Source of the DNA: Spirochaetota bacterium | Lineage (GTDB): Bacteria > Spirochaetota > UBA4802 > UBA5550 | DNA length: 64,000 bases | Assembly: GCA_029564515.1 (NCBI GenBank) | Contig: JAKQPV010000026.1 | Location: 158,066 to 222,065, forward strand | Direction of reading: 5' to 3' | Shown here: positions 4,204 to 51,294 of the stretch, in pieces | How positions within the stretch are numbered: position 1 is the first letter of the stretch | Layout: the number at the start of each line of letters is the position of its first letter | Position numbers and translations under genes: made by a program | The notes under the pieces: generated by a model | Databases searched by the model: none | Told to the model about the DNA's origin: nothing | Seen by the model: only the letters and a program-made list of their open reading frames with translations

Positions 4204-4595
4204 AAATAATGCGCGATCCAGCGGTTGTGTATCGCTACCGGCATCCCGTGCCGGACAGCTGCGATAACAGATAGATGCCATCCGGAAATTATTCAAGAAT
4301 AAATTTATCATGAGAAGAAATAATGAGCCGCTTCCCGGTCAGCCCGGACTGGTTTGAGATGTCTCACTAAAAAAGCATTGACCGGCGCCTTACGCGTATG
4401 ATGTGATACCGGCACCCGATGGGAGGAGGCCGGGATTAAACCGGTATGGCAGAGGCCGCCCCCTCCCGTTGATGAATGCGGCGGCAGGAAAAAGAAATTG
4501 ATTAATGAGCAACCCGGGCACCCACTTTTAACGGATCGGCGGACCCTTCGGGGGCTCTGCCCGGTCCGGACGCAGAACGCCAGGACTATGATACA

Positions 4596-5750
4596 ATGGA
4601 ACCGATCACTGCAATAAGCGGATACTGCATGCTGGCTGCCGCCGTCATCTCCTGCTACAAGGCGGTGGAGCAGATGCTGGTCCGGCGGTCCGAGGATCAC
4701 AACCGCATGCTCTTCGTTCTCCTCCTCTGCACCGGCTACCTCCTGGGAGCGCTGGGCGTTTTCAACATCGGCGCGCTTCCCACCCTGCCGGACGCCGTCT
4801 TTATCGCGGGGCTTATACTCTTCATCGCGGGCGCCTACCTGGCGGGGCCTGCGGCATACCTGTATTACCAGTCGCTCATCAGCCCTGTCAGCGGCAGGGC
4901 CGTACTGCACGCTGCGCCCTCGGCTGCGGCAGCCTTCTTCGCGGTCCCGTATCTCCTTACCCGGACACCGGCGTACCGCGATGCGATGCGGGCGGATTTC
5001 TTCCGCGCGCCGCATGAAGCGGCCCTGTACGCGATCATGGCGGTTGCCATGGCGGTCATCACCGGATATACCGTCACAATCCTGGTGATCGAGATCTCGG
5101 TCAGGAACAGCGGGAAGATCAGGCGCGCGGTCATGTCGCTGATCGTAGTGACGGCCGGCCTCCTCCTCTCACCCCTGGCTCTCTTCGCCGGTTTTGTAAT
5201 GCAGGTGCCCGCGCTGTCGCTTTCCGGCGGCCTGCTCTTCGCGCTGAACATGCTCCTTTTTATAATCGCGCATGTGCGGTACCAGGACTTCTTCCAGTAC
5301 CTCGGCAGCGAGGTCCGCCTGGCCCGCCAGCGACGGTCCGTTCTCAAGGGGCTGGACATACCCCGCCTTCGCGCGCGGCTGGCCGCCCTTATGGAGGAAG
5401 AGCACTATTACCGTAATTTCGACATCAGTATGGCCTCGACCGCCGAAAAGCTGTCGGTCACGCCCCACCAGCTCTCCTGCTTCCTGAACAGGAAGATGCA
5501 GATCGATTTCAGCAACTTCATCAACCGCTACCGCGTTGACGAGGCGAAGAAGCTCCTCGGGGAAGACCCGGACAGGACCGTACTCACGATCTGCTACCAT
5601 GTCGGGTTCGGCTCGAAAACCTCGTTTAACGTGACCTTCAAGGAATATACCGGCATGACGCCGACCCGGTACCGCGACCTTCACAGCGCAGGCACCGGCC
5701 CCGTGCGCCAGCACCCGCGGCCGGGCACGGCGCGCCGCGGCCCCTGCTGA
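4596..5750 (+). CDS. Polytopic membrane protein fused to an AraC/XylS HTH regulator
   Basis: About 6-7 hydrophobic helices are followed by an AraC HTH (LSVTPHQLSCFLNRK, GFGSKTSFNVTFKEYTGMTPTRYRD). Confidence 0.75.
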   Translation: MEPITAISGYCMLAAAVISCYKAVEQMLVRRSEDHNRMLFVLLLCTGYLLGALGVFNIGALPTLPDAVFIAGLILFIAGAYLAGPAAYLYYQSLISPVSGRAVLHAAPSAAAAFFAVPYLLTRTPAYRDAMRADFFRAPHEAALYAIMAVAMAVITGYTVTILVIEISVRNSGKIRRAVMSLIVVTAGLLLSPLALFAGFVMQVPALSLSGGLLFALNMLLFIIAHVRYQDFFQYLGSEVRLARQRRSVLKGLDIPRLRARLAALMEEEHYYRNFDISMASTAEKLSVTPHQLSCFLNRKMQIDFSNFINRYRVDEAKKLLGEDPDRTVLTICYHVGFGSKTSFNVTFKEYTGMTPTRYRDLHSAGTGPVRQHPRPGTARRGPC

Positions 5751-5912
5751 CATCAGCAGCCCGGAATTTTTTGGTTCAGGATTATAATCCCGAACGACAG
5801 GAGCGTAAAACAGTGATATGTTTCGGGCATCTTCACGTTTCCGCGGAAGCCCGTACGCCTGTCCGGGGGACGGGTGAAGACAATCACACAATACACCAGT
5901 ACGAGGTAGGAG

Positions 5913-19195: not shown

Positions 19196-19380
19196 AGTGC
19201 ATAGTGCATAGTGCATAGTGTATAGTGAATAGTGAATAGTTAATGTAACTGTTCCGCTCTTCCAGAGCGGAACAGTTATTTAACAGGTTGATCGTCCATC
19301 GTTAGTTATTTTTTTTATCCGCAGAAGCGGATAAAAAAAATAACCATAACTATTCACTATTCACTTTTAACTATTCACTG
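19196..19380. repeat. Heptamer-armed nested palindromic element, copy A (two inner hairpins)
   Basis: The left arm is (GTGCATA)x3-GTGTATA-(GTGAATA)x2-GTTAAT. The hairpins span 19247-19277 and 19306-19343. The right arm is ATAACTATTCACTATTCACTTTTAACTATTCACTG. Confidence 0.9.
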
Positions 19381-19413: not shown

Positions 19414-20280
19414 ATGCAGATATACCGGTTAGAGGATAAATGCAGTAATTGCATGCTGTGCGTGCGTGAATGCGTATCAGGCATATGGCGCAACGTCAAC
19501 GGCGTACCCACGCCCGTGGAGATCGACCTGTGCAACCGGTGCAGCCACTGCATAGCGGTGTGCCCGAAAAACGCCATCGTCCACGAGGGTCTCGACGCGA
19601 AGCAGGCACTCCCCGTGAAGAGTCTGAAAATCGACCCGGAGGCATACCGCGGCATAGTGCTCTCCCGCCGGAGCGTCCGCCAGTATAAGGACCGGGCCGT
19701 CCCGCGCGAGCTGATCGGGCGGATACTCGACCTTGCGCGGTATTCTCCCACCGCGAGCAACGACCAGAACGTCGGCTTCATCACGGTGACCGACCGCGCG
19801 CTGATAGGGGAGATCGCGGGCGGAATATTCGGGTTCGCGGACCGGCTCGCGGCCAGGCTCGAGACCGGCCCGGGTCGCCTCTTCATGAAGGTGACGGGAC
19901 TGGCAAAGAACCGCTACATCCGGCGCATGGATTACGCCCGCGAGATGGTCGCCGGGGGGAGGGACATTATCCTTCACAACGCCCCGGTTATGATCCTGGT
20001 GCACGGGCCCGCGAAAGGGAGCTTCGTCTGCGACAACTGCAGCATCGCCGCCACGAACATCATCAACTACGCGCATGCGCTCGGCCTGGGCACCTGCTAC
20101 ATCGGCTTTATGACCCTGGCCCTGCGCTTCAGCAAAAAACTCGGCAAGAAGCTGAAAGTCCCGGAAGGAAGAAAGGTGTACGCGAGCCTGGTAATGGGAT
20201 ACCCGGCTTATTCGCACCCGAATACTGTGTCGAGGAAGAAGGCGGATATACTATGGATAGAAAAATCAGTGAATAGTTGA
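19414..20280 (+). CDS. Fusion protein: N-terminal 2x[4Fe-4S] ferredoxin domain + nitroreductase domain
   Basis: CSNCMLCVRECV and CNRCSHCIAVCP, followed by RRSVRQYKDRAVP and PTASNDQN nitroreductase motifs. Confidence 0.8.
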   Translation: MQIYRLEDKCSNCMLCVRECVSGIWRNVNGVPTPVEIDLCNRCSHCIAVCPKNAIVHEGLDAKQALPVKSLKIDPEAYRGIVLSRRSVRQYKDRAVPRELIGRILDLARYSPTASNDQNVGFITVTDRALIGEIAGGIFGFADRLAARLETGPGRLFMKVTGLAKNRYIRRMDYAREMVAGGRDIILHNAPVMILVHGPAKGSFVCDNCSIAATNIINYAHALGLGTCYIGFMTLALRFSKKLGKKLKVPEGRKVYASLVMGYPAYSHPNTVSRKKADILWIEKSVNS

Positions 20281-20375
20281 TAGTTAATAGTGAATAGTTA
20301 ATGTAAATTTTATTCGCTCCTATGGAGCGAATAAAATTATCCATAACTGTTCACTATACACTATTCACTGTTCAC
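20268..20375. repeat. Heptamer-armed palindromic element, copy B (one inner hairpin, 20306-20338)
   Basis: AGTGAATAGTTGATAGTTAATAGTGAATAGTTAAT ... aattttattcgctcc-tat-ggagcgaataaaatt ... ATAACTGTTCACTATACACTATTCACTGTTCAC. Confidence 0.9.
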
Positions 20376-20393
20376 TAATTCAAGGAGGTCCTC

Positions 20394-21404
20394 ATGCGTA
20401 AAAAAATCATCATCGCCGTGATCTGCGTCGTTGCACTGTTCCACATAGCGTGGTATGCGGGAAGCAAAATATACCAGAACCGGGCGCTGCCCGATAAAGA
20501 ATCCGTGCACAGGCAGCTGGAGAATGACAGGAAAAGGATGAACATGGACGTCGACCTCAAGGCAATGCAGGAGACAACGATAGAAGCCAACGGTTTCACC
20601 CTTCACCTGACGGTATTTCCAGCCGGAGGAAAAGCACCTACCCTGGTGTTCGTTCCCGGAACAACCGCCTATGCGCAGGTCTACTGTCAGTTCATGAGCG
20701 ACATGTACCGCAGGGGATTCAATGTCGTCGGTTTTGACCCGCGCGGCCACGGGCTGAGCAGCGGAGGACGCGGCGATTATACCATCAGCGGGCTCGTGGA
20801 CGACACCCTGGCCGTGGTGAAGTACGCGCGGGCCCGGTTCGGCGGAAAGGTCGCCCTTGCCGGCAGCAGCCAGGGCGGCATGGTGGCCTTTTACGCCGCT
20901 GCCCGCGATGACTCCCTCTCCGCGGCCGTGTGCCATAACATAGCGGACCTCAACGGCAAAGACAACCTGGTGCTCTCAACGATCAGGCCGCCGCTCTTCC
21001 TGGTCCCCGCGGCGGAGCTCCTCATGAGCCTGTACGGGAGCTACTCCCTGCCGATATCCTTCTATCTTGACCTTACAAAGGAGAAATTTCCCGACGGCAC
21101 CGATGCCGCAACCCTTGTACACAAGGACATTCTCGCCGTGTCGTGGATCACCTTCCGGGCCCTGGGCTCCCTGATGCGCACCGGGCTCGCTAAACCGGTC
21201 GAGAAAATCCGCGTCCCCATTTTGCTGATACACGCCGACCGCGACAACATTTTCCCGCAGTCGTATGTCGAGGGCATATACAGCCGGCTGACCTGCCCTA
21301 AAAAGTACCTGCTCTTCAAAAACACGGAGCACCTGGTCATGACCAATAACGTGGGAGAGGTCGTGCCGCCGGTATCGGCCTGGCTCAGGGAAATAATGCG
21401 GTAA
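20394..21404 (+). CDS. Alpha/beta hydrolase (lysophospholipase/monoacylglycerol-lipase-like)
   Basis: N-terminal TM helix, nucleophile elbow GSSQGG (GxSxG), and a late HLVM histidine. Confidence 0.75.
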   Translation: MRKKIIIAVICVVALFHIAWYAGSKIYQNRALPDKESVHRQLENDRKRMNMDVDLKAMQETTIEANGFTLHLTVFPAGGKAPTLVFVPGTTAYAQVYCQFMSDMYRRGFNVVGFDPRGHGLSSGGRGDYTISGLVDDTLAVVKYARARFGGKVALAGSSQGGMVAFYAAARDDSLSAAVCHNIADLNGKDNLVLSTIRPPLFLVPAAELLMSLYGSYSLPISFYLDLTKEKFPDGTDAATLVHKDILAVSWITFRALGSLMRTGLAKPVEKIRVPILLIHADRDNIFPQSYVEGIYSRLTCPKKYLLFKNTEHLVMTNNVGEVVPPVSAWLREIMR

Positions 21405-21424: not shown

Positions 21425-21874
21425 ATGTTCAAAGAAAAGATACATACCGGGATCGATATCAACGCCGCTCCCGCGCTGGTCTGGAGCGTGCTGGCCGACC
21501 TGGCCCGCTACCCCGAATGGAACCCGATGATCCGCAGCGCCGCAGGCGAGCTGAAGCGCGGGAGCAGGCTCACCCTGCGGTTCAACCCGCCCGGGACAGG
21601 GGAAACAGTCTTTTGCCCGAAGCTTATGGTCGTGGACCCGGTGCGCGAGCTGCGCTGGCAGGGCCGGCCGGGATTCCCGCTCCTCTTCGAGAGCGTGCAT
21701 GTTTTCATCATCGAGCCGGCCGCAGCGGGCGGGTCCCGGCTCACGCACGACATGCTGTTCTACGGGCTGCTGATACCGCTTGCGCGGGCCAGGATCAGGC
21801 GGTCGATCGAGGGCCCCTTTGTACTGATGAACAAGGCGCTCAAGGCACAGGCTGAGAAAAGTAATGGACAGTAA
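21425..21874 (+). CDS. SRPBCC (polyketide cyclase/dehydrase-like) ligand-binding protein
   Basis: The N-terminal pattern INAAPALVWSVLADLARYPEWNPMI is typical of the SRPBCC/Polyketide_cyc2 family. Confidence 0.65.
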   Translation: MFKEKIHTGIDINAAPALVWSVLADLARYPEWNPMIRSAAGELKRGSRLTLRFNPPGTGETVFCPKLMVVDPVRELRWQGRPGFPLLFESVHVFIIEPAAAGGSRLTHDMLFYGLLIPLARARIRRSIEGPFVLMNKALKAQAEKSNGQ

Positions 21875-21877
21875 AAA

Positions 21878-21985
21878 AGTGAATAGTTAATAGTTAACAG
21901 TGAATAGTGAATGTAAATTTTATTCGCTCCAGTGGAGCGAATAAAATTATCCATAACTGTTCACTATACACTATTCACTGTACAC
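21878..21985. repeat. Heptamer-armed palindromic element, copy C (one inner hairpin, 21916-21948)
   Basis: The core and right arm are identical to copy B over about 80 bp except for the hairpin loop (agt vs tat). Confidence 0.9.
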
Positions 21986-21998
21986 TTAATAGGAATCC

Positions 21999-23922: not shown

Positions 23923-24210
23923 TGCGGCACCTCTCGGGGGAACAAACGCCCTGCTATGAAAATTAGAATAGTATCGATGAAATCTTCCGCCGGCGGGGGG
24001 ATGTGTCAATCCTTTTTCAGGAGGGGGAATCCAGATAGTCAAGATGGGGAGAATATGACGCTTGCAAATTATTATCAGCATATCTCCGCAGTTCTTCGGT
24101 GGCAGGACCATCTTTATTACACTGGATTTGATCCTTTCTATATAGTTCATTGCAGCCTCATGATTGATCTCAGGTGACAATTATATTGTCATTGGGGGGG
24201 GGGGTGCATG

Positions 24211-25110
24211 CTAAGGGAGGAAGTTATTAAGATCAATACAGTAATCCACTGATGCTGTAATACCAAAAATATGTTCAAAGCTCATTGATGCTTCTTCTAC
24301 TTTCTTGAGTTTATAAAGCATTTGATACCTGAATCCCAAGGACAAATCAATTGAAACAGCGGAAATAAAATAATCAATGCTGCAACTTGCATTCATGCCG
24401 ATCTTGTTAACATTACTTTGTGTTATATTTGATGGAATATATGTAATTATGCTTGAAGATTCCGTTTTTCCAATATAGTACTGCTCGGTTACCTGATCTG
24501 AAAAGCAAAAAAGGAACGCTGGGTCAATATTAAAAGTCAGCATGTTATTTATTATTGGTATAGAAAAGCCAATTCCAATAAGGGGGATGTATTCATTGGT
24601 TGTATCTGTTATTACTTTCTTCCCCGCCATAAAAAAATCCGAATAGCTAGTAAAGATTCTCAAAATATGATTGCTGGTATGGTTATAAGTAAAACCCATG
24701 GACAGGTTTAAAATTTTATTAAATGAATATCGTATTTTTGTATCACATTCGTATCTTTCCACAACTCCCATCTTATCCATAATTACAATATTACCGAAAT
24801 ATTGATTTTTTTTTGTGGCTGAAAATTGTCCAAATAAAAACATAGACATAATGCTGATATTTTCAGGAAGATTAATGCATATATTGGGACCATACATGAA
24901 ATTTTTTTTTATATATGTTCTATTGATAATATCCGGAGGATAGAAAATGTCACTTGTTTCACCAATATACATAAGTTGGGATTCCAGCACTGGAGATGGA
25001 AGAATCCAGAATGCATACCATGAATTAAAACCCAGTCGGATACTTGTGGCTTCTGAGTATACTGGCGTTAAAATTATTACTAATAATAATACATATTGAA
25101 TAAATTTCAT
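24211..25110 (-). CDS. Secreted hypothetical protein, possibly an outer-membrane beta-barrel
   Basis: Signal peptide (MKFIQYVLLLVIILTPVYSEA) and alternating hydrophobic/aromatic strands. Codon usage is very AT-rich. I recognise no family. Confidence 0.4.
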   Translation of the reverse strand: MKFIQYVLLLVIILTPVYSEATSIRLGFNSWYAFWILPSPVLESQLMYIGETSDIFYPPDIINRTYIKKNFMYGPNICINLPENISIMSMFLFGQFSATKKNQYFGNIVIMDKMGVVERYECDTKIRYSFNKILNLSMGFTYNHTSNHILRIFTSYSDFFMAGKKVITDTTNEYIPLIGIGFSIPIINNMLTFNIDPAFLFCFSDQVTEQYYIGKTESSSIITYIPSNITQSNVNKIGMNASCSIDYFISAVSIDLSLGFRYQMLYKLKKVEEASMSFEHIFGITASVDYCIDLNNFLP

Positions 25111-25223
25111 ATTCTTGATATTTCCACCATATATTGCTGAATCACTCAGTCTTTTGGTATGTCCCCATGGGTCAATAATTTTCGGAGAGTGCAGTTATCA
25201 CTGAATTGATTATAGAAACAATA

Positions 25224-27260
25224 TCAAGGGGTTGCATTTAGTGCACCATATGCATCAAGCATTTTGCTCGTGGATATCTTGCCATCGAGATTCGAATTGA
25301 TTTTTCCGCCATTAAGTATCATATTCCTAATTTGCGAATAGGTATATGTTGGATTGGCTGCCAAGACAAGACCTGCAACACCGGTTACATACGGTGCCGC
25401 CATTGATGTACCTTCAAGAAAAAGGCAGGCAGTTGCATTATTATAATGATACCATCGGTTAATAACAAAAGGACATATTTCAATACCATAATAATTTAAT
25501 GTTTCATTTGATACAAATCTAAATCCTATACTAGTATTATGAGACGAAATCGGTGTTAAATCAAATACAGGTGAATCTACGGTCTCTCCCAATGTACCGA
25601 GGTTATTCATAGGCTTATTCCCATCAGTATCATATACGACGTTTACGTAATCCGCCTCATCTTGAATATAACATGCATATTTAAAATATAACGTTACCAG
25701 AGCAGGCTCATACGCATTCAGGTCGAACGTTCTGTATGCATAACTATCCATGTTATTCAAGTAGTAGTATTCAGAAAAAACCAGTGGGTTGTTCAATACA
25801 CCCATGATTCCAGTGATGCCACTACTTGAATAATTAACATCAATATATTTATAATTCCATCCAGCATCTCTCTTCCATGATGAAAAATATTCTATCGCAT
25901 AAACCTTCTGCGCGGGATAGGTACTAAGTATATTAACTCCCGGTGCGGCAATATCAACCGATGTCACTCCATAATTTGTCCAATGTGGCAGTGTGCCATT
26001 CTGGTTAATTGCAGCGACTGATATTATATTGTCGAGATCATAACTGGCAGGGTATTCAGGTTGAGTATCATTACTTGATCCGTTGTTCCCTGCTGCGGCA
26101 ATAAAAAGTACGCCATTATTCCTTGCTTCATTAATTGCATCATATATCGCCTCATCATATATATAATCGCCCCAGCTGGCATTAATTATTTTTGCACCGT
26201 TTTCAATTGCGAACTCTATTCCAGAAACGATATTATCTGTCGTACCGTTCCCACTCGCATCAAACACGCGAACTGCCATTATGTTTGATTTCCAGCATAC
26301 ACCGCTAATTCTATTCCCATCATTGCCGCTTGCACCGATGATGCCAGCTACATGAGTCCCGTGACCATTCACATCTTTCGGGTCTTTTGTGTTATCCACA
26401 AAATCATAACCATGAATGCAATCGCCAAGAGAATCTCCAGATCCTGTGACACAGGCCGTACCGTCCCACATGTTGTTTTTTAAATCGCTGTGGTTGTAAT
26501 TCACGCCAGTATCAAGAACTGCGATTATAACACTGCTGCAATCGTCAACCATGTCCCATGCTTTGCACGCGTTTATATCATATCCCACTGTTCCGGTATC
26601 GGTATTCACCGTTTGACCTGAATTATATAATCCCCATTGGTTATTGAATTCATAATCATTTGGCGTGGTGGTTGTTGTATGATATATATAGTTTGGCTGT
26701 GCATATTTAACATATTGATTTTGGTTTAACTTTTGAATGGTTTTTTCCAATATCATATTTGAGGAAAGACTTATTTTTTGCAGCAATGACGATTTATTGT
26801 TACCACCAATACTCTTCAACGATTTTCCAAACCCCATTGCCTGAATTACATTGTTTGCTTGCCATATGTTAACACCGGCACGAAATTTTATTAGTACTTC
26901 ATTCTTTTTATATTTAGTTGCTTGTCCCTCACCATATGAACCAATACTCTGTGAAAAAGTATATGCATCAAGTTGACGAGAGTCTGTCTTTTTTGAACCT
27001 GGTGGTTTAGATGCGATCATACGGGAGCCAGTAAAATCTTTCATGCCGCAACTACAAGCAGAACCATAATATTCATCATCCGGTTGTATGATTTCAGGAT
27101 TTCTACCAGAATACAAAAACATACTCGACGTGAAAACATTCTCGATATCACTAATTTTTTTTGATAAATCAATATTATTGCATGATTGTAAAAACAATAA
27201 AATAATAATTAAAAAATTACGAATAGTTTTTTGTTCATTAAATTTATATTTATTAAACAT
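25224..27260 (-). CDS. Subtilisin-like S8 serine peptidase lipoprotein with an I9-like propeptide and a large insertion
   Basis: Lipobox LFLQSC. Catalytic triad contexts are AVLDTGVNYNH, NGHGTHVAGIIGA and EGTSMAAPYVTGVAGL. Confidence 0.9.
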   Translation of the reverse strand: MFNKYKFNEQKTIRNFLIIILLFLQSCNNIDLSKKISDIENVFTSSMFLYSGRNPEIIQPDDEYYGSACSCGMKDFTGSRMIASKPPGSKKTDSRQLDAYTFSQSIGSYGEGQATKYKKNEVLIKFRAGVNIWQANNVIQAMGFGKSLKSIGGNNKSSLLQKISLSSNMILEKTIQKLNQNQYVKYAQPNYIYHTTTTTPNDYEFNNQWGLYNSGQTVNTDTGTVGYDINACKAWDMVDDCSSVIIAVLDTGVNYNHSDLKNNMWDGTACVTGSGDSLGDCIHGYDFVDNTKDPKDVNGHGTHVAGIIGASGNDGNRISGVCWKSNIMAVRVFDASGNGTTDNIVSGIEFAIENGAKIINASWGDYIYDEAIYDAINEARNNGVLFIAAAGNNGSSNDTQPEYPASYDLDNIISVAAINQNGTLPHWTNYGVTSVDIAAPGVNILSTYPAQKVYAIEYFSSWKRDAGWNYKYIDVNYSSSGITGIMGVLNNPLVFSEYYYLNNMDSYAYRTFDLNAYEPALVTLYFKYACYIQDEADYVNVVYDTDGNKPMNNLGTLGETVDSPVFDLTPISSHNTSIGFRFVSNETLNYYGIEICPFVINRWYHYNNATACLFLEGTSMAAPYVTGVAGLVLAANPTYTYSQIRNMILNGGKINSNLDGKISTSKMLDAYGALNATP

Positions 27261-27521
27261 ATATTTTACTCTGTGATTAACATATTAAACTGTGTTATTA
27301 ACATGGCATTAATAATCCAAGGAATTAACAAATAAAATAAGGCCGATCAATTGTTGTCATAATGTTGATTTATTGATCAGCCTTTTATTCATAACATTCA
27401 TATTTGTTTTGAAAAATATCTAATCACTCATCATAAATGGTTCTCAATCCTCTTTTAAGTTATAAGATAAAATTATCTATTACATATCTAAATATATGCA
27501 TCTATAGAGATTCATCCCTTA

Positions 27522-28382
27522 TTAAAATACTTCAGTCCATGCTTGTCCGTCATCAGGGGTCGGGTAGTAAGTAATAATCCAACCATTAAAATATATTTTT
27601 GGTTGGCTCCAGACTCCAAAATGCATGTTGTATGATTTTAGCTCTACATTAACTGCGGCATTTATCATCGGATTGAATCCAGCATAAGAACCATTATGAC
27701 TCCAGGTTATAAGATCCCCATCATCATCATATCCTCTAAACTCAACAATCATGTTTGGTGACCATGGGTCTTCAAATGAAAAAGTTAACACATATTGAGA
27801 TGCACCAATAAGCCACCAGTAGCCATTATAATAGTCAACTCCGGCCCACCATCGTTTGTCATACTCACGTGCAGTTGCATTTCCACCTGTCGTAAAAATA
27901 TGAGATAATACACCTGTATCAAGTGTACTATTGATACTATATGAACAATTATTTTCAAATAAAGCTGTTATTTCTTTCGGTATATCATTTGAGACAATAG
28001 ACGAATTAGATTTATCATTCATAAAACTATCAAGATATTTTTGCCAATTACTCCCTAAAGCTTTCTTCAATGCAATCTGAAGACTATATTCCATATTTTC
28101 ATAAGTATATGGCGGAATAGGAACAATAAACTTCTTTCCTTTAAAAATTAAATTGTCACCTTCATATGTTATTACTTTCGCCATTCCTTTAGATATCAAT
28201 TGTTGAGCAACATTCTCAATTCCACCTATTATTATTGATTGAGATTTTGCACTCACAACAGCTGATTCCGATGATTCACTACTAGCAAGAGCTAATAATG
28301 ATTTTCCATTTTTTGATAGGTCATAACAGCTTACGCAAAATGATCCAAGTAAACAAATAATTAGCACAAAATATTTCTTCAT
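27522..28382 (-). CDS. Hypothetical lipoprotein (Trp/Tyr-rich C-terminal domain)
   Basis: Lipobox LLGSFCVSC. AT-rich codon usage matches the neighbouring S8 gene. I recognise no family. Confidence 0.5.
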   Translation of the reverse strand: MKKYFVLIICLLGSFCVSCYDLSKNGKSLLALASSESSESAVVSAKSQSIIIGGIENVAQQLISKGMAKVITYEGDNLIFKGKKFIVPIPPYTYENMEYSLQIALKKALGSNWQKYLDSFMNDKSNSSIVSNDIPKEITALFENNCSYSINSTLDTGVLSHIFTTGGNATAREYDKRWWAGVDYYNGYWWLIGASQYVLTFSFEDPWSPNMIVEFRGYDDDGDLITWSHNGSYAGFNPMINAAVNVELKSYNMHFGVWSQPKIYFNGWIITYYPTPDDGQAWTEVF

Positions 28383-29244
28383 GTAACCCCCCTCCCTTTT
28401 TTATAATTGATTGTAAATATATAATCCATCATTATTTGATGGTCAATGACTCACCAGATAATATTTGATTCAATCCTATTACGAGTACTGAACAAATAAC
28501 TTGTATACAATGTTCAAATAATAATGTAATGCGGAAGAAACAAATAATAATGTTATGCAATTTCTAACGCACAACGCACACTTGTCAATGAAATTATTTA
28601 TTCTTGTCCAATTTTTTGGACAGCATCCAATTATTAAATATGAATTACAATAACCATTATTATCCCCCCATTCCTTTTCCAATCTTTCCCCGCAAACGGG
28701 TTCAGAATAATGGCTACAGATGGTTCGCCGCTCAAGTTAGCGCTGTAAGAAGTTTGACCCCAATTTTCGCGATCACTAAAACTGGAGCGCCAAGAATTTG
28801 AACGTGACTAGTATAACCTGTTCAATTAACGCGAGATGGAACATATAATGCAAATTTTCGATGCGCTGGGCGGATCAGACAACATCAAGGGCGCATGAGG
28901 AAAGTCGTTCCTGCCTGTAGGATCGGGCAGATTTATTGACAATGTGGGAAGAGCAATATTTTCAACCTATGTTAAAATGTCTGGCGGGAATTTTCTTATT
29001 GCTTTTTTCCCATAGCCAGCTCATAATTCCCACGATGCAGTATTCTTAATTTCGTATTGCAGGGCCTCGTCACTCTTTCCCGTGTAAACATACTGGTGCT
29101 GTCTCGCAGGACTCCAGAATCACCCGGAAGAGGCCTTTCCGAACGAGTAATTGCTGAAAAGCCCCTATCTGGAGGGGTTTGGGGGGGGTGTCATTCTTAG
29201 ACAGCCTTCTATTCAATACATTAATTATCAACGGAGGTCTTAAA

Positions 29245-29538
29245 ATGAAAAAATTATTAATTACGACATCATGCATTATCGGCATGGTGGCCTATATCTA
29301 CGGTATGGGCGATACCACCGCAGCGAAGAAGACGCTGTGCGACAAGGGGTGCGAAGTGGCCTACGAGGCCTGCGTGAAGGCGGCCGGGACGGCTGCGGAA
29401 AAGATTACCAGCACGAAGCAGGCCGAGTACAAGAAAAAGGCCGACGAAGCGGTGTGCGTGAAGGGTAAAGACGCCTGCCTCAAAAAGTGCGCCGCCGAGT
29501 TCACGGCACAGCCGGCCCAGCCCACGACAGCGAAATAA
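29245..29538 (+). CDS. Small secreted Cys-rich, Lys/Ala-rich protein
   Basis: Signal-like MKKLLITTSCIIGMVAYIYG with a GGAGG RBS, and six Cys in the mature part. The start lies inside ORF 29179..29538. Confidence 0.45.
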   Translation: MKKLLITTSCIIGMVAYIYGMGDTTAAKKTLCDKGCEVAYEACVKAAGTAAEKITSTKQAEYKKKADEAVCVKGKDACLKKCAAEFTAQPAQPTTAK

Positions 29539-29645: not shown

Positions 29646-30413
29646 ATGGACCCCATCTGCAACATCGCCCTCTATTCGAATATCCGCGACAGGGCACTGA
29701 AGCGCAAGGGGATCCTCATCGCCGAGGGGAGGCTCCTGGTGGGACGCCTCCTGGACTCGGACCTCGGGGTACAATCCATCCTCTGCGCTGAAAAAATGGC
29801 GGATGAATTCCGGGAGCGTGCCCGGGGGAGATGCCCCGTCCATGTCCTGGGTAATGACGAGATGGAGAAATTCGCGGGGTTCCCCTTCCACCGCGGCGTC
29901 ATGGCGGTGTCGCTGCGGCCCGTCATCATCCCCCTCGGGCAATTCCTTACCGAGAAAGCCCCGTACAGAAATTTCGTGATATGCCCGCGCCTCTCCGGCG
30001 ACGAGAACCTGGGGAGCATCATTCGCACCTCCGCGGCCATGGGCGCGGACGCCGTTCTCATCGGTCCGGAAAGCTGCGATCCCTTCAGCCGGAGGGCCCT
30101 CAAGGCGTCCATGGGTACGGCATTTTCACTTCCGATAGTCATGATGGATGGGGTCGACAGCGCTTTCCCGCTGCTGAAGGGCCGCGGATTCATGGTGTAC
30201 GGAGCGACTACCGGTAAAAACTCGATACCCATCCGCGAGGTACGTCCCCCGGAGAAACGGGCCGTGGTGTTCGGCAACGAGGCAGAGGGAATACCGGCGA
30301 ACATCCTGTCGCAGTGCGACGTGATCGTGCACGTGCCCATGCACAACAACACGGATTCGCTGAACGTGAGCGTGGCTGCGGGGATTGTGCTTCATGAGCT
30401 GTTCAATCATTGA
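29646..30413 (+). CDS. TrmH/SpoU-family RNA 2'-O-methyltransferase
   Basis: SpoU motifs (GSIIRTSAAMGADAV, VVFGNEAEGIP, DSLNVSVAAGIVLHE). The start is taken at MDPICNI. Confidence 0.8.
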   Translation: MDPICNIALYSNIRDRALKRKGILIAEGRLLVGRLLDSDLGVQSILCAEKMADEFRERARGRCPVHVLGNDEMEKFAGFPFHRGVMAVSLRPVIIPLGQFLTEKAPYRNFVICPRLSGDENLGSIIRTSAAMGADAVLIGPESCDPFSRRALKASMGTAFSLPIVMMDGVDSAFPLLKGRGFMVYGATTGKNSIPIREVRPPEKRAVVFGNEAEGIPANILSQCDVIVHVPMHNNTDSLNVSVAAGIVLHELFNH

Positions 30414-30608
30414 TGATGGTCTCTCGCAGAAGCGCAGTGACGCGGAAGGACTGGGTTCCGGCCCTGCACATTGCCCGGCTGGCGGGCAAACATCCTGCCG
30501 GCCGATTCCGCGCGGCCTTCTTCCCCCCGCAACGTTCGAGAGGCCCGGGTCTTTCACCTCCCCCGTTAGCGGGGAGGCAATGGAAAGGGCGCGCGGCTCA
30601 CCGCCCGA

Positions 30609-31496
30609 TCAGTTGGCCAGTCCCGCTTTGACCTTATCCATATCGAGCGGCTCCGGCTTGGAAGCATCGACGAACAGCGAGAGCGCCCCGCTTGGGCACC
30701 TGTCCGAGCACAGCTCGCACCCGCGGCATTCTTCTTTGATATAAACGCGATTACCGTCCTTCATGACGATCGCCTCGAACGGGCAGATCTGCGCGCAGGT
30801 ACCGCAGTTTTTGCATTTCGCAGGGTCATGCCTGACCGAATAGCCGGAGTGCATGGCCACCGGCACCACGCCCGTGCCGAGCTTTTTGGTAATATTTGAA
30901 GCAATGATGTTCAAACAGTAGTCCGGGTGGCAGTTGCAGATGACGCCCGTGGAACCGCCGGTCGCCACCTTGAAAAAAGCCTGAGTTATGTAGTTTTTCT
31001 TCCTCAGTCGATCGATGATCCCGAGCGCTTCCTCCTGGGTCACCTTCCGTGCGTTGTACTTGTTGTTGTCCAGCCAGAACTGCGCCGCCCTGCCGATCAT
31101 AAAGCATGAATTCAGGTCCTCCTTCGGCGCGCCGGTCGATTTCTTGCAGGGACAGTCCATCACCGCGATGAACTCAGGCTCCTGGAAGATGATCTTCGTG
31201 GCGTACTTGAAGGGAACGATCCTCTTGTTCTCGTCGGAGATCCGCCGCACGTCCTCGTTCAGCGTGAATATCTTCCGCGTATCCCCGGTTGACAGCGTCT
31301 TCGCGTGGTATCGGTGGAACACGAAATTGGCGACCGGCCTGAGCGGCTTGAACCACATCATGTTGCGCAGGGCCAGCACGCCGGTGGTGAGTACCTTGAT
31401 GTAGGGATAATAATACCGGAAATAGATGATATTGTGGATCGCCCTGTCGACCCTCCATCCATGTTTTTTAAAAATGTCTTTCGTTGATTGCTTCAT
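30609..31496 (-). CDS. 4Fe-4S dicluster domain protein with a Cys-rich N-terminal domain
   Basis: The C-terminus carries CKNCGTCAQICP and CRGCELCSDRCP. Upstream are CPCKK and CNCHPDYC. The start at MKQSTKD follows a GGAGG RBS. Confidence 0.65.
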   Translation of the reverse strand: MKQSTKDIFKKHGWRVDRAIHNIIYFRYYYPYIKVLTTGVLALRNMMWFKPLRPVANFVFHRYHAKTLSTGDTRKIFTLNEDVRRISDENKRIVPFKYATKIIFQEPEFIAVMDCPCKKSTGAPKEDLNSCFMIGRAAQFWLDNNKYNARKVTQEEALGIIDRLRKKNYITQAFFKVATGGSTGVICNCHPDYCLNIIASNITKKLGTGVVPVAMHSGYSVRHDPAKCKNCGTCAQICPFEAIVMKDGNRVYIKEECRGCELCSDRCPSGALSLFVDASKPEPLDMDKVKAGLAN

Positions 31497-31803
31497 GTTG
31501 ACCGCCTCCGGCATCGTCCGGTTACGGGCCTGGGCACCGGCGCTTCCCGGCTGATCCATGACCAGTTTTTTGATCAAAACGCAATCTGATTGTAGCGATA
31601 CCACGCAGAAAATCAAGAACTAACCCTGTGCGAAGATTTTTTTAAAGAGATTTCTCCCGCATGGTGCACCGGCGTCAAGCCTTGCGCGCGGTCGGAGAGC
31701 GGTGTTCGCAGGAAACGCATGCCGTGGTATTCGGCAACAAGGCGGGGGAAATGCCGGCGGGACAGCGGCCCGGGCATGTTTCATCCGGGCATCGCGTAAC
31801 GGG

Positions 31804-33172: not shown

Positions 33173-33775
33173 CTACCGGCCTGCCTGCTTCCTGACAACA
33201 CCATTCACCATCTTCGAGAACTCTCCATTACTTTCCACGAGTTGAAGATACTCGATGATTCGGTTATTCTCGTCATAAATTTCCATGACAGTACCGCAGT
33301 ATGCGTCCCGCATCTTGTTATAATCGTCTATCGCCGGATATGCCTTTATTTCTCCGATCCACACAGACAACGCCGCGGATAGCGGAAATGTGACCCGTTT
33401 AAACATATGCTTTGGCCAGAGTTTCACATTGAAGGGTGCATTTTTCCGAATGAGAGCCTCGCTGTCATCGGGGCTGACAACACACCCGAAGAAAGCCCGA
33501 AGTTCCTGTTTCGGCGTTTTCCTCGGATCAACGTGATAGGCGATGACACGGGCTATAGGCCGTATGCCGTAATCTTTTTCAAGACGTGCGGCCAGCTCGC
33601 GCGATCGGGCCCTGAGGCCCGAATAAGAGCCGTCCTGGTTTTCATATACAAGGTTAAAGGGCCCCCTCACCATCCTTTCCACATGAACCTTAATGAAAAG
33701 CCCGGACCACAGGGCATAAGCGACAAGCAGCGACAGGAACAGAATACACACAATCAGTATTTTCATATTGTGCAC
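33173..33775 (-). CDS. Membrane-anchored hypothetical protein (possibly a GyrI-like/SOUL-like fold)
   Basis: An N-terminal TM helix is followed by a soluble domain of about 170 aa. The family assignment is tentative. Confidence 0.4.
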   Translation of the reverse strand: MHNMKILIVCILFLSLLVAYALWSGLFIKVHVERMVRGPFNLVYENQDGSYSGLRARSRELAARLEKDYGIRPIARVIAYHVDPRKTPKQELRAFFGCVVSPDDSEALIRKNAPFNVKLWPKHMFKRVTFPLSAALSVWIGEIKAYPAIDDYNKMRDAYCGTVMEIYDENNRIIEYLQLVESNGEFSKMVNGVVRKQAGR

Positions 33776-34005
33776 CTTGGTACGATTTATGAAACCATAT
33801 CACAGGGGTGGTTACCTGAATGAGAGCATAAACATCCCCGTTTTTCCTGGTCTCGGACGAGGGTCACTGAAAAAAGGAGATGTTCGGCATGCCGGACATT
33901 CCCGCCGCAAATAAATCGTTGACACGGCCCATCCGGAGGGGTATCCTATGCATCACATATTCACTCGTCTCGTTTCATTCACGTCCATACGCCAGGAGCA
34001 TCATC

Positions 34006-35145: not shown

Positions 35146-35167
35146 GGCAGTGAATAAATAAAAATGG

Positions 35168-35196
35168 AAAAGGCCCGCAAACTCCTGCGGGCCTTT
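35168..35196. terminator. Bidirectional rho-independent terminator between convergent genes
   Basis: aaaggcccgca-aactcc-tgcgggccttt, with A-run and T-run flanks. Confidence 0.7.
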
Positions 35197-35239
35197 CATA
35201 TGCACGTGTTCCCGCACCGGGGAGTATCGAATTCAACTT

Positions 35240-36496
35240 CTATTTCTTCGGCTCAAGCGACTCGTAAATGGGGAACCGCTTGCACAGGCCCCCGATCTCG
35301 CCCTGCACCTTCTTCCTGACTGCCTCGCTGTCCGGGTTTTCAAGAATATCCGCGATGCACCCGGCTATAAGGTCCATCTCGCTTTCTTTCATGCCGCGCG
35401 TCGTGAGGGCGGGCGTGCCCATGCGTATGCCGCTCGGGCGGACAGGGGTCCGCTTGTCAAAGGGGATCATGTTCTTGTTCACGATTATGCCCACCGCGTC
35501 GAGGAGGTCTGCAGCGACCTTGCCGTCCAACTGCCTGTCCTCCAGGTCGATCATCAGGAGGTGGTTGTCCGTGCCGCCGGTCACCAGGCGGAACCCGCGC
35601 TTTTTAAAGACGTCCGCCAGCCGCCTGCAGTTCACGATCGTCTGCTTCTGGTCCGCCTTGAACTCCTCGCCCATGGCCTCTTTGAAGCAGACGGCCTTCG
35701 CCGTTATGGCGTGCATCAGCGGCCCCGCCTGTATGCCGGGGAACACGGCCTTGTCTATCTGCTTTGCGTACTGCTGCTTGCACATGATGATGGCGCCCCG
35801 GGGGCCGCGCAGCGTTTTGTGCGTGGTCGAGGTGATCACGTCGCACCAGGGCGCCGGGTTGGGGTGAACGCCCGCGGCTATCAAGCCGGCGATGTGCGAG
35901 ATGTCCGCCATGAGCAGCGCGCCAACCTCCGCGGCCACCCTGTGCCACTGTTCGAAATCGATGGTGCGGGGATAGGCGCTCGCGCCCACCACGATCATCT
36001 TCGGTTTGTGCTCGCGAGCCAGCGCGGCTATCTCGTCGATTTCCAGCACCTCGCTCTTTTTGCTCACGCCGTATGCCGAGAATGTATAGTACTTGCCGGA
36101 GAAGTTGATGTCCTTGCCGTGGGTCAGGTGGCCGCCATGGTCCAGGTTCATTGCCAGGATCCGGTCGCCGTGCTGGAGGAGGCCGTAGTAGACGCACATG
36201 TTGGCGGACGCGCCCGCGTTGAGCTGCACGTTGGCATGTTCCACGCCGAAGAGCTCCTTGCAGCGGGCTATCGCAAGGCTCTCGGCCTTGTCCATGAACT
36301 GGCAGCCGTTGTAGTAGCGCTGGCCAGGGTAGCCTTCCGCGTACTTGTTGGTCATGACGCTCCCCTGGGCCTGAAGCACCGCCAGGCTCGCGTAATTTTC
36401 AGACGGGATCATCATGAGGGTCGTCTGCTGGCGCTCAAGCTCGCCGTTTATGATGCTGTATATCTCGGGGTCCACCTGCGCTAACGGTTTGTTCAT
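35240..36496 (-). CDS. glyA: Serine hydroxymethyltransferase
   Basis: Full-length SHMT similarity (DPEIYSIINGELERQ, TNKYAEGYPGQRYYNGC, TSTTHKTLRGPRG). The start is taken at MNKPLAQ. Confidence 0.95.
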   Translation of the reverse strand: MNKPLAQVDPEIYSIINGELERQQTTLMMIPSENYASLAVLQAQGSVMTNKYAEGYPGQRYYNGCQFMDKAESLAIARCKELFGVEHANVQLNAGASANMCVYYGLLQHGDRILAMNLDHGGHLTHGKDINFSGKYYTFSAYGVSKKSEVLEIDEIAALAREHKPKMIVVGASAYPRTIDFEQWHRVAAEVGALLMADISHIAGLIAAGVHPNPAPWCDVITSTTHKTLRGPRGAIIMCKQQYAKQIDKAVFPGIQAGPLMHAITAKAVCFKEAMGEEFKADQKQTIVNCRRLADVFKKRGFRLVTGGTDNHLLMIDLEDRQLDGKVAADLLDAVGIIVNKNMIPFDKRTPVRPSGIRMGTPALTTRGMKESEMDLIAGCIADILENPDSEAVRKKVQGEIGGLCKRFPIYESLEPKK

Positions 36497-40914: not shown

Positions 40915-40930
40915 CGGGCTGTAACAACAA

Positions 40931-41050
40931 TAGTGAATAGTTATGGATGATTTTCAATGGAAGTTTAACCTTGTAAATAATTTTATCCGCTCTGCAAGAG
41001 CGGATAAAATTAACCACAACTTTTCACTATTCACTATTAACTATTCACTG
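40931..41050. repeat. Heptamer-armed palindromic element, copy D (one inner hairpin, 40979-41011)
   Basis: TAGTGAATAGTTATGGAT ... aattttatccgctc-tgcaa-gagcggataaaatt ... TTTTCACTATTCACTATTAACTATTCACTG. Confidence 0.9.
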
Positions 41051-41893
41051 TTTTTTATTATCAATATTCTCCGGCTCCATGTTGTGTATTATACTCAGGA
41101 CCGTATTGAGTTTCGAGTAATGCCCCCCGGTCACCGGGCCCATGGCGCCCTCGCCTCCCAGGAGCCTCTTGCTGATCTCGCGGGGCGGCAGCCCCTTGTC
41201 GTGAAGATCGAGCACCAGCGCGGAGAGGTCCTCCATGAAGCGGACTTTCTCCCGCAGCGCATCCCTGCCGTTGTCCACCGCCCCGAGCAGGCTGCAGAAT
41301 ATGGTCCCGAAATCGAGCCCGGCAAGCATCCCGAGCGTCTCCACGATGAGGGAATAGTTCTCGTCAGCGCGGAGGTACTTGAAGCCCCTGCCGCAAAAGA
41401 GGTCCCCGGTGAAGAGCCAGCCCTCCCGGGGCTCGTGCAGGCAGACATGGTGCGGCGTGTGCCCGGGTGACGGTATGACCTTCAGTGCGTACGGGCCGGC
41501 CTGCACCACTCCCGGCAGCGGGTCCGCGTCCGAGGGCGCGGGCCATCCCCACACCACGCGCTGGTAGGGCCTAAGCTTCAGGAGACGCGGGTTCTTCAGA
41601 ACCGGCAGCGCCCCGGCCGGCGCAAGCACGCGCGCGCCAAAATGGCCCTGGAGCAGGTCGTTGCCTCCGATATGGTCCTCATGCTGGTGAGTGTTGATCA
41701 CCGTACGTATAATCCTCCCTTCCAGAACCGATGCCAGCTCCCTTCGCACGCAGGGCGCCCCGGTATCGATCATGGTGTCGCCCACCAGGAAGGCATGCAC
41801 CGGGTAGAGGACGAAGCGGCCGATGCTCCGGCCCATCCTGATAACGGTTACGGGACCATGCTCGGATGTTTTGATCATGCCGATACTCTCCAC
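41045..41893 (-). CDS. MBL-fold metallo-hydrolase paralog
   Basis: VINTHQHEDHIGG and SPGHTPHH. The start is GTG at 41893 or ATG (MIKTSEH) at 41878. The stop TGA lies inside repeat copy D. Confidence 0.8.
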   Translation of the reverse strand: MESIGMIKTSEHGPVTVIRMGRSIGRFVLYPVHAFLVGDTMIDTGAPCVRRELASVLEGRIIRTVINTHQHEDHIGGNDLLQGHFGARVLAPAGALPVLKNPRLLKLRPYQRVVWGWPAPSDADPLPGVVQAGPYALKVIPSPGHTPHHVCLHEPREGWLFTGDLFCGRGFKYLRADENYSLIVETLGMLAGLDFGTIFCSLLGAVDNGRDALREKVRFMEDLSALVLDLHDKGLPPREISKRLLGGEGAMGPVTGGHYSKLNTVLSIIHNMEPENIDNKKQ

Positions 41894-41894
41894 T

Positions 41895-42076
41895 AGCGAA
41901 TAGTTAATAGTTAATAGTGTATAGTGAATAGTTATGGATGATTTTTAATCTGCTCGATGAGCAGATTAAAAATCAATTTAAAATGGAAGTTTATCCTTGT
42001 AAATAATTTTATCCGCTCTGTAAGAGCGGATAAAATTAACCACCACTATTCACTATACACTATTAACTATTCACTG
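41895..42076. repeat. Heptamer-armed palindromic element, copy E (two inner hairpins, 41940-41974 and 42005-42037)
   Basis: AGCGAATAGTTAATAGTTAATAGTGTATAGTGAATAGTTATGGAT ... CACTATTCACTATACACTATTAACTATTCACTG. Confidence 0.9.
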
Positions 42077-42406
42077 AATTTTCCTCATTTCCCAAACAGT
42101 GCCTTTCGGGTCCGGGCAGTGAATCCTGAAGATCCTCCTGTTATCGCTGTTCCATGACGGAAACCCGAATGCGGCGCGCCACACGTACAGGTCGAGCACG
42201 TGCAGGAGGGCACGGCACACTCCTTCAGGCTTCTGGTACGGGTTTTCGTACACGAACACGTCTCCAAGATTGTGCCTGCACTCCTCGTTCTTTTCCACCA
42301 TCCTGATCTCCAGCCTGCTGACGCGTTTCCAGAACTCAAGGTAGTCCCTGTGGTCCCTGATTGCGTCCAGGTCAAGGTTCAGGTCGATGCCCGTATCGTG
42401 GTCCAT
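42071..42406 (-). CDS. Small Cys-containing protein resembling the TIGR04076 family
   Basis: The pattern GDVFVYENPYQKPEGVCRALLHVL...FGFPSW...IHCPDPKGTVWEMRK resembles TIGR04076 from memory. The stop TGA lies inside repeat copy E. Confidence 0.5.
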   Translation of the reverse strand: MDHDTGIDLNLDLDAIRDHRDYLEFWKRVSRLEIRMVEKNEECRHNLGDVFVYENPYQKPEGVCRALLHVLDLYVWRAAFGFPSWNSDNRRIFRIHCPDPKGTVWEMRKIQ

Positions 42407-51106: not shown

Positions 51107-51287
51107 AGTAGTGCATAGTTAATAACGAATAGTGAATAGTTATTGTAAATATTTTCCGCTCTTCCAGAGCGGAAAATATTTTATTATGATGTTAATCGTT
51201 TATTCTCAAGCAATTTTCCATCCGCTCAGGTAGAGCGGATGGAAAATTATCCGCAACTATTCACTAATCACTATTCACTATTAACTG
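51107..51287. repeat. Heptamer-armed palindromic element, copy F (two inner hairpins, 51148-51180 and 51212-51248)
   Basis: AGTAGTGCATAGTTAATAACGAATAGTGAATAGTTATTGTAAAT ... CGCAACTATTCACTAATCACTATTCACTATTAACTG. Confidence 0.9.
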
Positions 51288-51294
51288 TCTTTTA

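Follow-up and report, generated by a model that had tools for sequence, protein, structure and literature searches.

A probably acquired surface-protease islet with same-strand poly-G ends inside a heptamer repeat in a Spirochaetota genome

Introduction

How did about 5 kb of AT-rich DNA come to lie in a GC-rich spirochete chromosome, with the same seven base pairs at both edges, a run of Gs just inside each copy, and no recognizable mobility gene? This question is raised by a locus of an uncultured, GC-rich Spirochaetota lineage (host GC content ~0.58). The DNA that we analyzed, here called the window, comprises 64,000 nt of the forward strand of contig JAKQPV010000026.1 (positions 158,066 to 222,065; Spirochaetota bacterium, assembly GCA_029564515.1), and coordinates are those of the window unless another locus is named. 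An initial annotation had marked the AT-rich segment and its edges from the letters of this stretch. We followed up its claims by comparison with related loci and contigs, which were fetched from public collections and are designated by L numbers.

The segment carries three genes for predicted envelope proteins, one of them an S8 (subtilisin-like) protease. By its composition and its absence from relatives, it works like a genomic islet, and a 7-bp direct repeat lies at its edges. We conclude that it is probably a recently acquired islet of ~5.0 kb, representing the horizontal gain of a surface-protease cassette. That DNA was gained here, that it passed through a circular intermediate, and the way in which it was joined are all things that we infer. 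Several of the source samples belong to a Joint Genome Institute (JGI) sample-number series that we take to be from anaerobic digesters; no search reported a habitat.

Results

The two edges of the islet share a heptamer and carry G runs on the same strand. At the left edge, TGTCATT (24187 to 24193, plus strand) is kept in all contigs that reach it and stands just outside a run that has 11 Gs in the window (24194 to 24204, plus strand). This run starts 6 nt past the stop codon of the last gene of the islet operon and, read on the sense strand of that operon, consists of Cs. The wider context reads GGTGACAATTATAT-TGTCATT-G11-TGCATGC, with heptamer and run at 24187 to 24204. At the right edge, eight Gs (29181 to 29188, plus strand), invariant in every contig examined that reaches this junction, are followed by the second TGTCATT (29189 to 29195, plus strand), 49 nt upstream of the ATG of a gene for a 97-residue protein; here the context is GGAGGGGTTT-G8-TGTCATT-CTTAGAC (29181 to 29195). 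The initial annotation had described exactly these ends, TGTCATT-G11 and G8-TGTCATT, and both can be read in the sequence where it placed them.

On neither strand does the window contain another G or C run of at least 8 nt, and a scan of 404 kb of related spirochete loci returned just two other distinct 8-nt runs and none longer. TGTCATT itself is not over-represented in the window (nine copies observed, 5.9 expected), and the probability that the same 7-mer abuts the outer side of both runs by chance is ~4^-7. The heptamer beside both runs is therefore not a chance arrangement.

Some secondary structure adjoins the junctions. The left flank holds a perfect 7-3-7 palindrome of 17 bp, TGACAAT-TAT-ATTGTCA (24175 to 24191), whose right arm overlaps the left TGTCATT; no other element of that junction is stable in the centroid fold. 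On the right, a GC-rich hairpin, AAAAG-CCCCT-ATCTGG-AGGGG-TTT (29157 to 29180), sits between an A run and a T run, directly against the right G run. It resembles a bidirectional terminator and forms a local stem in the minus-strand fold, with a fold energy not significant against shuffles; the junction folds likewise showed no significance relative to shuffled sequence. Two further resemblances were rejected. A longer imperfect repeat, G8-TGCATGCTAAG versus G8-TGTCATTCTTAG, scored no better than shuffles, and a proposed likeness between the right end and locus L042, where TGTCATT lies near a CCCCTCCAG hairpin, received no support from alignment.

The edges coincide with a sharp change in composition. 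GC content is ~0.34 between the G runs and ~0.58 outside, and it drops from ~0.60 to 0.30 to 0.40 between ~24.0 and 28.7 kb. At third codon positions (GC3), the contrast is greater still: 0.23 to 0.31 for the three islet genes and 0.71 to 0.89 for the neighboring genes. Intergenic spacers inside the islet have a GC content of 0.25 to 0.35. The AT-rich segment in a GC-rich background, as first described, is thus borne out by both whole-segment GC and GC3.

The islet is absent at this locus from every relative examined, and the locus is a synteny break point. The nearest genome, L001 (JBGTBN010000032), aligns at 83 to 87% identity through both flanking genes (blastn), and the 5215 bp from 24029 to 29243 have no counterpart there. 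Instead, the genes for the MBL-fold hydrolase on the left and the 97-residue protein on the right lie ~195 bp apart in L001. In L054, the hydrolase is 88% identical at the protein level and has a haloacid dehalogenase (HAD)-type gene (read from its translation) beside it; in L055, it is 75% identical and its neighbor is a chemoreceptor gene. No cassette gene gave a tblastn match in the fetched stretches of these three genomes. Homology to L001 and L054 stops at ~24022 to 24028, 106 nt upstream of the hydrolase start codon, and homology to L001 resumes at the ATG of the 97-residue gene.

A check proposed at the outset, the search for an empty site with a single TGTCATT, gave a divided answer: the islet is missing from L001, L054 and L055, and no single-TGTCATT site was found in them. 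Because no alignment could be made between L001 intergenic DNA and the window flanks, L001 supplies no exact empty site, and protein-guided scans of genome and metagenome collections returned nothing closer than 88% protein identity. The initial annotation had seen a target-site duplication or an att-like scar in the edges. The 7-bp repeat is there; with no single-copy site found, a duplication of the target is something that we infer, and the heptamer may not have been a passive target.

Other differences between the window and L001 lie close by. An Fe-S protein gene (30404 to 31800) and a 700-bp stretch (33203 to 33902) occur only in the window, and a 2.2-kb low-GC insert (L001 positions 3568 to 5759, opposite window positions 35160 to 35240) occurs only in L001. 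None of these other window/L001 indels has G runs or duplications at its edges, so gene gain in this lineage does not generally leave such a layout.

The junctions are not assembly products. We looked up the exact S8, 97-residue and MBL-fold proteins in public assemblies and recovered 14 contigs in which the right junction is base-identical; they come from JGI assemblies, SPAdes contigs (NODE_), k141_ contigs, two NCBI metagenome-assembled genomes (MAGs) and Logan. The left junction is crossed by four contigs: the window, L013, L016 and L032. Some 10 others end inside the left G run or turn degraded after 15 to 19 or more Gs. Identity to the window is 99.94% or more for every junction contig, and relative to L013, the length of the G run is the sole indel in 22 kb. 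They represent one clonal population sequenced many times, which rejects a chimera and yet provides no evolutionary replication.

The left run has 11 Gs in the window and L016, 14 in L013 and 18 in L032, and at contig ends it has between 15 and 19 or more. The G11 first reported is thus correct for the window and not a fixed length. Note that this spread of 11 to 19 comes from Illumina assemblies, in which biological variation and sequencing error are inseparable. Seven contigs, L014 (GCA_017993415.1, JAGOMR010000034.1, at a contig end), L015, L019, L020, L033, L037 and L040, end in the left poly-G or carry corrupted sequence past it, which in public contigs amounts to tens of bases. These ends at the left poly-G are artifacts of a real long homopolymer.

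Poly-G is a known artifact of two-color Illumina chemistry, and an AT-rich contig of another organism could in principle have been stitched in through poly-G read tails or low-complexity k-mers. The many contigs that stop exactly in the left G run or continue as garbage would suit such a chimera. It does not accord with 14 contigs, drawn from different samples and several assembly sources, that agree base for base at the right junction, with four contigs that cross the left junction, or with the similar SPAdes coverage (4.8 to 6.5x) of contigs that join the islet to either flank. Furthermore, a graph artifact would not generate an exact 7-bp duplication, and the garbage past the run resembles a phased-out copy of the true islet sequence, as a real long homopolymer would give. 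We consider a chimera extremely unlikely, and the chimera check proposed in the initial annotation therefore comes out in favor of real junctions, on the strength of the 14 identical right junctions and the four that span the left.

The three islet genes form one minus-strand operon encoding a lipoprotein, an S8 subtilase lipoprotein and an outer-membrane beta-barrel. Gene 1 (27522 to 28382, minus strand; GC3 0.23) encodes a 286-residue lipoprotein of unknown family. It has same-position homologs in L041 and L059, with 29% identity to the L041 protein (tblastn), and its lipobox residues S18 and C19 are invariant in the alignment with its three known homologs. Gene 2 (25224 to 27260, minus strand; GC3 0.31) encodes a 678-residue S8 subtilase lipoprotein with a peptidase domain (PF00082, E = 2.4e-57) and a fervidolysin-type N-terminal prodomain (PF22148). 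A signal sequence followed by a Cys is found in nearly all of its full-length homologs, and its scores reach the cut-off of no NCBIfam equivalog, PrtP included. Gene 3 (24211 to 25110, minus strand; GC3 0.30) encodes a 299-residue outer-membrane beta-barrel with a signal peptide.

The barrel belongs to a small family. It matched no Pfam or NCBIfam family, and a word-indexed homolog search returned only itself. With HMMER, 141 relatives were found among 1.84 billion representative proteins, and Legionella_OMP is weakly matched by 9 of 43 family members. AlphaFold2 reached a predicted local distance difference test score (pLDDT) of only 28 from the single sequence; from the family alignment, it gave an all-beta model with long antiparallel strands (pLDDT 87.7, predicted template modeling score 0.82). 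With Foldseek, this model resembles Legionella porin I and the omptins Pla and OmpT (E values of 1e-9 to 1e-6), and also OpcA, OmpA and the NalP translocator. Modeling thus confirms gene 3 as a predicted outer-membrane beta-barrel. The lipoprotein, S8 protease lipoprotein and barrel-like protein named in the initial annotation are all supported by Pfam, the lipobox residues and the AlphaFold2 and Foldseek results. PADLOC and PHROGs returned generic S8 matches only for the islet proteins.

Judging from these sequence features, the cargo is predicted to be a surface-anchored, surface-displayed protease module, and the modeled barrel may anchor or export the lipoprotein protease. A similar arrangement is the dentilisin complex of Treponema denticola, prcB-prcA-prtP (PMC8167434), also a spirochete operon in which an S8 subtilase lipoprotein and an accessory lipoprotein serve outer-surface display. 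The likeness does not extend to the families. On the PrtP equivalog NF033595, which has a cut-off of 300 bits, the islet S8 protein reaches 84 bits and was rejected as a PrtP; its partners match no family and, within the tests made, show no relation to PrcA and PrcB. Dentilisin also lacks a free-standing barrel, whereas the third islet gene encodes one, which resembles 10-stranded barrels. In the autotransporter subtilase NalP, to whose translocator domain the islet model is similar (Foldseek rank 23), the barrel is fused to the protease; in the islet, it is separate. We know of no described instance of an S8 lipoprotein paired with a separate barrel.

The operon is preceded by a non-coding leader of ~800 bp (28383 to 29180, minus strand) with no convincing open reading frame (ORF) and no Rfam family. 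An earlier reading had ~860 bp of non-coding DNA following the genes. The stretch exists, and because the genes are on the minus strand, it lies upstream of them. Neither a listing of its ORFs nor a tblastx comparison with all loci brought out pseudogene remnants, and no homology to the upstream regions of other cassettes was found. GC content is 0.30 for 28383 to 28680 and 0.46 for 28681 to 29180. The latter block is unlike both the other non-coding DNA of the islet (25 to 35% GC) and host coding DNA, and no protein or DNA homology was found for it; by its composition, it may be a decayed third-party fragment.

Homologs of this cassette occur in six other genomic contexts, with a GC content of 0.3 to 0.5 in backgrounds of 0.55 to 0.67. 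Identities are 51 to 54% for the S8 protein, 38 to 47% for the barrel and 29 to 34% for the lipoprotein, which is sometimes present. The cassette lies between a hemerythrin-like gene and a hexapeptide-transferase gene in L041, between a flavodoxin gene and a pair of ORF6N genes in L042/L060, and between a MazG gene and HigBA genes in L056. In L059, it is downstream of an MBL-flavodoxin fusion gene, on a contig that ends just past the barrel gene; in L061, it is low in GC relative to its surroundings; and in L062, it is found together with a ribbon-helix-helix (RHH)-PIN toxin-antitoxin pair. Toxin-antitoxin or duplicated ORF6N neighbors were seen at L056 9005 to 9607, L062 3001 to 3620, L042 11350 to 12487 and L060 5770 to 6747. 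Such pairs and duplicates are typical of variable regions rich in mobile elements. The module recurs at low GC and at unrelated loci, which is the behavior of an accessory, horizontally exchanged cassette. No non-coding homology was found between cassette copies, and none in the databases searched is close enough to be a donor (the best is 54% identical). The BLAST comparison proposed for the three proteins thus located cassettes at other loci and no donor lineage.

These copies also bear on whether the islet might be ancestral, with L001, L054 and L055 having lost it by deletion or rearrangement and with a low GC content intrinsic to surface-protein genes. Wherever the cassette was found, its GC content is low, which makes composition alone a weaker sign of recency than usual, and the position upstream of the hydrolase gene is a synteny break point in all relatives. 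A GC3 of 0.23 to 0.31 beside 0.71 to 0.89 is, however, more extreme than long exposure to the mutation bias of the host would leave, and the spacers are AT-rich too (0.25 to 0.35). Cassette copies lie at unrelated loci in each genome, and none of the three relatives retains a remnant. We regard ancestry followed by loss as very unlikely.

The heptamer recurs near related cassettes. In the 3.2 kb upstream of the L041, L042 and L060 cassettes, TGTCATT or its complement AATGACA occurs seven times (2.19 per kb). The rate across 93 kb of other low-GC DNA is 0.25 per kb, so the enrichment is about ninefold; none of 2000 shuffles reached seven copies. The copies lie at 975 and 1149 in L041, at 7506 and 7622 in L042, and at 1888, 1906 and 2388 in L060, where two of them form a perfect inverted repeat, TGTCATT-N11-AATGACA. 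No copy was found upstream of the cassettes in L056 and L059. The enrichment hints at a heptamer-specific site in preference to a random target duplication.

The same pattern could belong to a regulatory layout with no insertion scar, in which the G tracts are phase-variation switches and the TGTCATT copies are operator half-sites. In Treponema pallidum, poly-G tracts of 7 to ~12 Gs lie in mapped promoters (tprE/G/J, tprL and tp0126), and transcription of tprE, tprG and tprJ is permitted only at 8 Gs or fewer (PMC7864442); variable poly-G in spirochete promoters is thus documented. The islet has in common with these loci the phylum, G runs of at least 8 nt near genes for outer-membrane or surface proteins, and one tract whose length differs between assemblies. 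The right G8 is 8 nt upstream of a possible -35/-10 promoter (TTAGAC-17-ATTAAT, read by eye) of the 97-residue gene, and the upstream enrichment of TGTCATT, with the inverted repeat in L060, would suit an operator. The variable tract here, however, follows a stop codon: it lies 6 nt past it and ~185 nt upstream of the conserved promoter region of the hydrolase gene, in neither a promoter spacer nor an ORF. The promoter-proximal tract, for its part, never varies and is upstream of the putative -35 box, outside the spacer. The homologous 97-residue gene in L001 has no upstream G run, homologous cassettes lack G runs at comparable places, and lengths of 11 to 19 in Illumina assemblies are indistinguishable from sequencing error. 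Nor does phase variation account for two tracts at an insertion boundary, both at compositional breaks and each beside the same heptamer. We therefore think this explanation unlikely.

No mobility genes or inverted ends were found. Gene families were checked for the called genes of positions 15227 to 37260, that is, ~8 to 9 kb on each side of the islet, and there was no recombinase, integrase or transposase gene among them; the initial annotation's statement that the islet encodes none holds for the islet and for this wider region. There are no tRNA genes in the 64 kb, and no Rfam families were found. A repeat search gave no terminal inverted repeats, the ends being G11 and G8 of the same strand, and no islet or flank sequence has a second copy in the window. 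The islet DNA has no similarity to plasmids or phages, the barrel protein has no relative encoded in viral contigs, and the pattern expected for a circular junction, G8-TGTCATT-G8, had no match in viral contigs; its half patterns gave 28 and 9 scattered matches, which we take as chance.

Several known classes of element were rejected on this basis. Since both G runs are on the same strand, they are not inverted transposon ends; nor are they 3' tails of a duplex, because tailing of its two strands would produce G...C. A DDE transposon, insertion sequence or composite transposon does not fit the lack of inverted ends, of a transposase gene and of a sibling copy in the window. A self-encoded tyrosine-recombinase element was rejected in view of the called genes and the lack of dyad-symmetric arms, and an integron cassette in view of the missing attC-like structure, the missing GTTRRRY core at either end and the lack of intI among the called genes nearby.

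The position of the C tract on the sense strand calls to mind a retroposed copy, in which a polycistronic transcript with a 3' poly-C tail was reverse-transcribed, with a 7-bp target duplication and untemplated 5' nucleotides. Read on the sense strand, the islet runs AATGACA-C8-(5' leader and three genes)-6 nt-C11-19-AATGACA, with a homopolymer tail right past the last stop codon and abutting a short duplication. A tail in this position is the formal layout of the products of target-primed reverse transcription. We know of no bacterial poly-C tailing pathway and no gene retroposition of this kind, and no reverse transcriptase gene is among the called genes nearby. An 800-nt leader that opens with a terminator-like hairpin would also be odd for the 5' end of a transcript, and there is a single instance. 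We give retroposition next to no credence. A speculative role for the left run is that, as a C tract in the transcript, it could favor Rho loading ahead of the co-directional hydrolase gene.

The islet lies between two host genes. On the left, the metallo-beta-lactamase (MBL)-fold hydrolase (304 residues, PF00753; 23008 to 23922, minus strand; GC3 0.89) is encoded downstream of the islet operon and in the same direction. On the right, the 97-residue Cys-rich secreted protein or lipoprotein (29245 to 29538, plus strand; GC3 0.74) is followed by a SpoU methyltransferase gene. The hydrolase gene is preceded by 106 nt (23923 to 24028) that are conserved in L001 and L054 and contain a perfect minus-strand TTGACA (24004 to 24009), after which comes a G/C-rich stretch that is G6 in the window and G7 in L001. 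Short G runs in this putative promoter spacer seem native to the host lineage. Several host intergenic gaps are filled by a dispersed, partly palindromic, AT-rich repeat of ~110 to 125 bp, with copies at ~19200 to 19380, 20250 to 20400, 21864 to 21990, 40930 to 41070, 41900 to 42080 and 51110 to 51300. It is also present in the ~80%-identical relative L054 (reverse complement, 640 to 780 and 2265 to 2386) and has the look of a repetitive extragenic palindromic (REP) or miniature inverted-repeat transposable element (MITE).

Discussion

We find that the islet is best described as an insertion, and a sequence of events can be proposed for it. The islet would have entered the divergent intergenic region between the hydrolase gene and the 97-residue gene, at a TGTCATT beside the 17-bp palindrome. 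The heptamer of this entry site would now flank the insert as a direct repeat, and both G tracts would belong to the inserted DNA. The donor would have been a circular or permuted molecule carrying G8-TGTCATT-Gn, or one in which a single G tract was opened. Joining could have followed either of two routes, which are inseparable from sequence alone: recombination at a heptamer core with the chromosomal TGTCATT, catalyzed in trans, or end-joining into a break with a 7-nt stagger. The empty site would read ATTATATTGTCATT joined to CTTAGAC, and the excised circle would read GGGGTTTG(n)TGTCATTG(n)TGCATGC or be a fusion of G8 to Gn. The long left tract would since have become a hypermutable homopolymer that defeats short-read assembly.

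The islet can be compared with several known systems. It shares with genomic islets a sharp compositional break, absence from the nearest relatives, surface-protein cargo, short edge repeats and modules at different loci. It differs from them in having no adjoining tRNA gene and in its same-strand G tracts just inside a 7-bp repeat.

The nearest formal analog of a heptamer-flanked insert is the Helicobacter pylori plasticity-zone transposon (TnPZ/ICEHptfs), in which the tyrosine recombinase XerT acts at the heptanucleotide AAGAATG (PMC2731543). As in that system, the insert is flanked by a specific 7-bp direct repeat, of which one copy is expected at the empty site. The heptamer of the islet recurs near related cassettes. 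TnPZs, however, are 40 to 55 kb long, encode their own XerT and a type IV secretion system, and have terminal inverted repeats of 13 to 14 bp (PMC2731543). The islet is 5 kb long and has no recombinase, no inverted ends and G-run ends, and no single-copy empty site was found. The identical 7 bp at both junctions fit the 6 to 8 bp of a crossover core, and by analogy a heptamer-core mechanism is plausible for the islet.

Integron cassettes and integrative mobile elements exploiting Xer (IMEX) likewise lack a recombinase of their own, being mobilized by one that is encoded elsewhere, and a circular intermediate with a single site would give the direct repeats observed. The junctions, on reading, differ in having no attC-type imperfect palindrome, no GTTRRRY core and no dif-like 28-mer. 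Furthermore, the islet cargo consists of three genes in one operon that has an 800-bp leader of its own, and its homopolymer arms are in direct orientation.

A further possibility is that the module is a new, integrase-less mobile cassette of Spirochaetota that circularizes and recombines at TGTCATT through a recombinase encoded elsewhere. We hold this stronger proposal to be unlikely. If it were true, the window would capture a fresh insertion that shows the heptamer embedded in a G tract, and the TGTCATT copies upstream of older cassettes would be remnants of such sites.

Several observations weigh against our reading of the locus as a single insertion event at the heptamer, or against its extension to a mobile cassette. 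The layout is known from one insertion, and every contig that carries it comes from one clonal population. None of the other cassette copies, in six contexts, has G runs at its edges, so a mobile element class with G-run termini, of which the initial annotation knew none with this cargo, would have this one insertion as its basis. The L041 cassette is bounded instead by a 37-bp imperfect direct repeat, GAACCTGCCGCCTnTTGAGnATnnCCCCATGGGGCAT (888 to 924 and 5320 to 5356), which scores 54 against a shuffle maximum of 23 and is the only significant flanking repeat of any cassette copy; it would represent a different, att-like boundary for the same cargo.

The position of the true edges can also be questioned. 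Outside the repeats, a further 165 nt on the left and 48 nt on the right are likewise unshared with L001 and align with it no better than shuffles, so the acquired DNA is possibly wider, with repeats and G runs inside it. The empty-site 26-mer, AATTATATTGTCATTCTTAGACAGCC, had no exact match in metagenome contigs. The 46%-GC block at 28681 to 29180 suggests a mosaic insert. Regarding a recombination core, the arms of the heptamer, G8 and Gn, are direct and not dyad-symmetric, unlike those of known tyrosine-recombinase core sites, and the arms of the reconstructed attB site, ATTATAT and CTTAGAC, show no dyad either. Finally, the heptamer enrichment comes from only two independent lineages, L041 and L042/L060 (the latter two being homologous contexts), and an operator for a cassette regulator would explain it equally well.

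One literature search on poly-G tracts, islands and target duplications returned nothing in which the poly-G term occurred, and we know of no described case in which homopolymer ends of the same strand, such as these G tracts, lie just inside a short direct repeat such as this one of 7 bp. There is also a practical consequence for metagenomics. The left poly-G corrupts or breaks many of the public assemblies examined, which calls for caution wherever contig ends and island boundaries are interpreted in MAGs.

Regardless of the route of entry, the junction offers a clean example of DNA entering a chromosome without a recognizable mobility gene, leaving behind a heptamer repeat and same-strand homopolymer ends. 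For the spirochete, the islet would add a module, probably a surface protease, from a small family that lacks annotation. If more such cases exist, they would point to an undescribed route by which gene cassettes are captured or moved.

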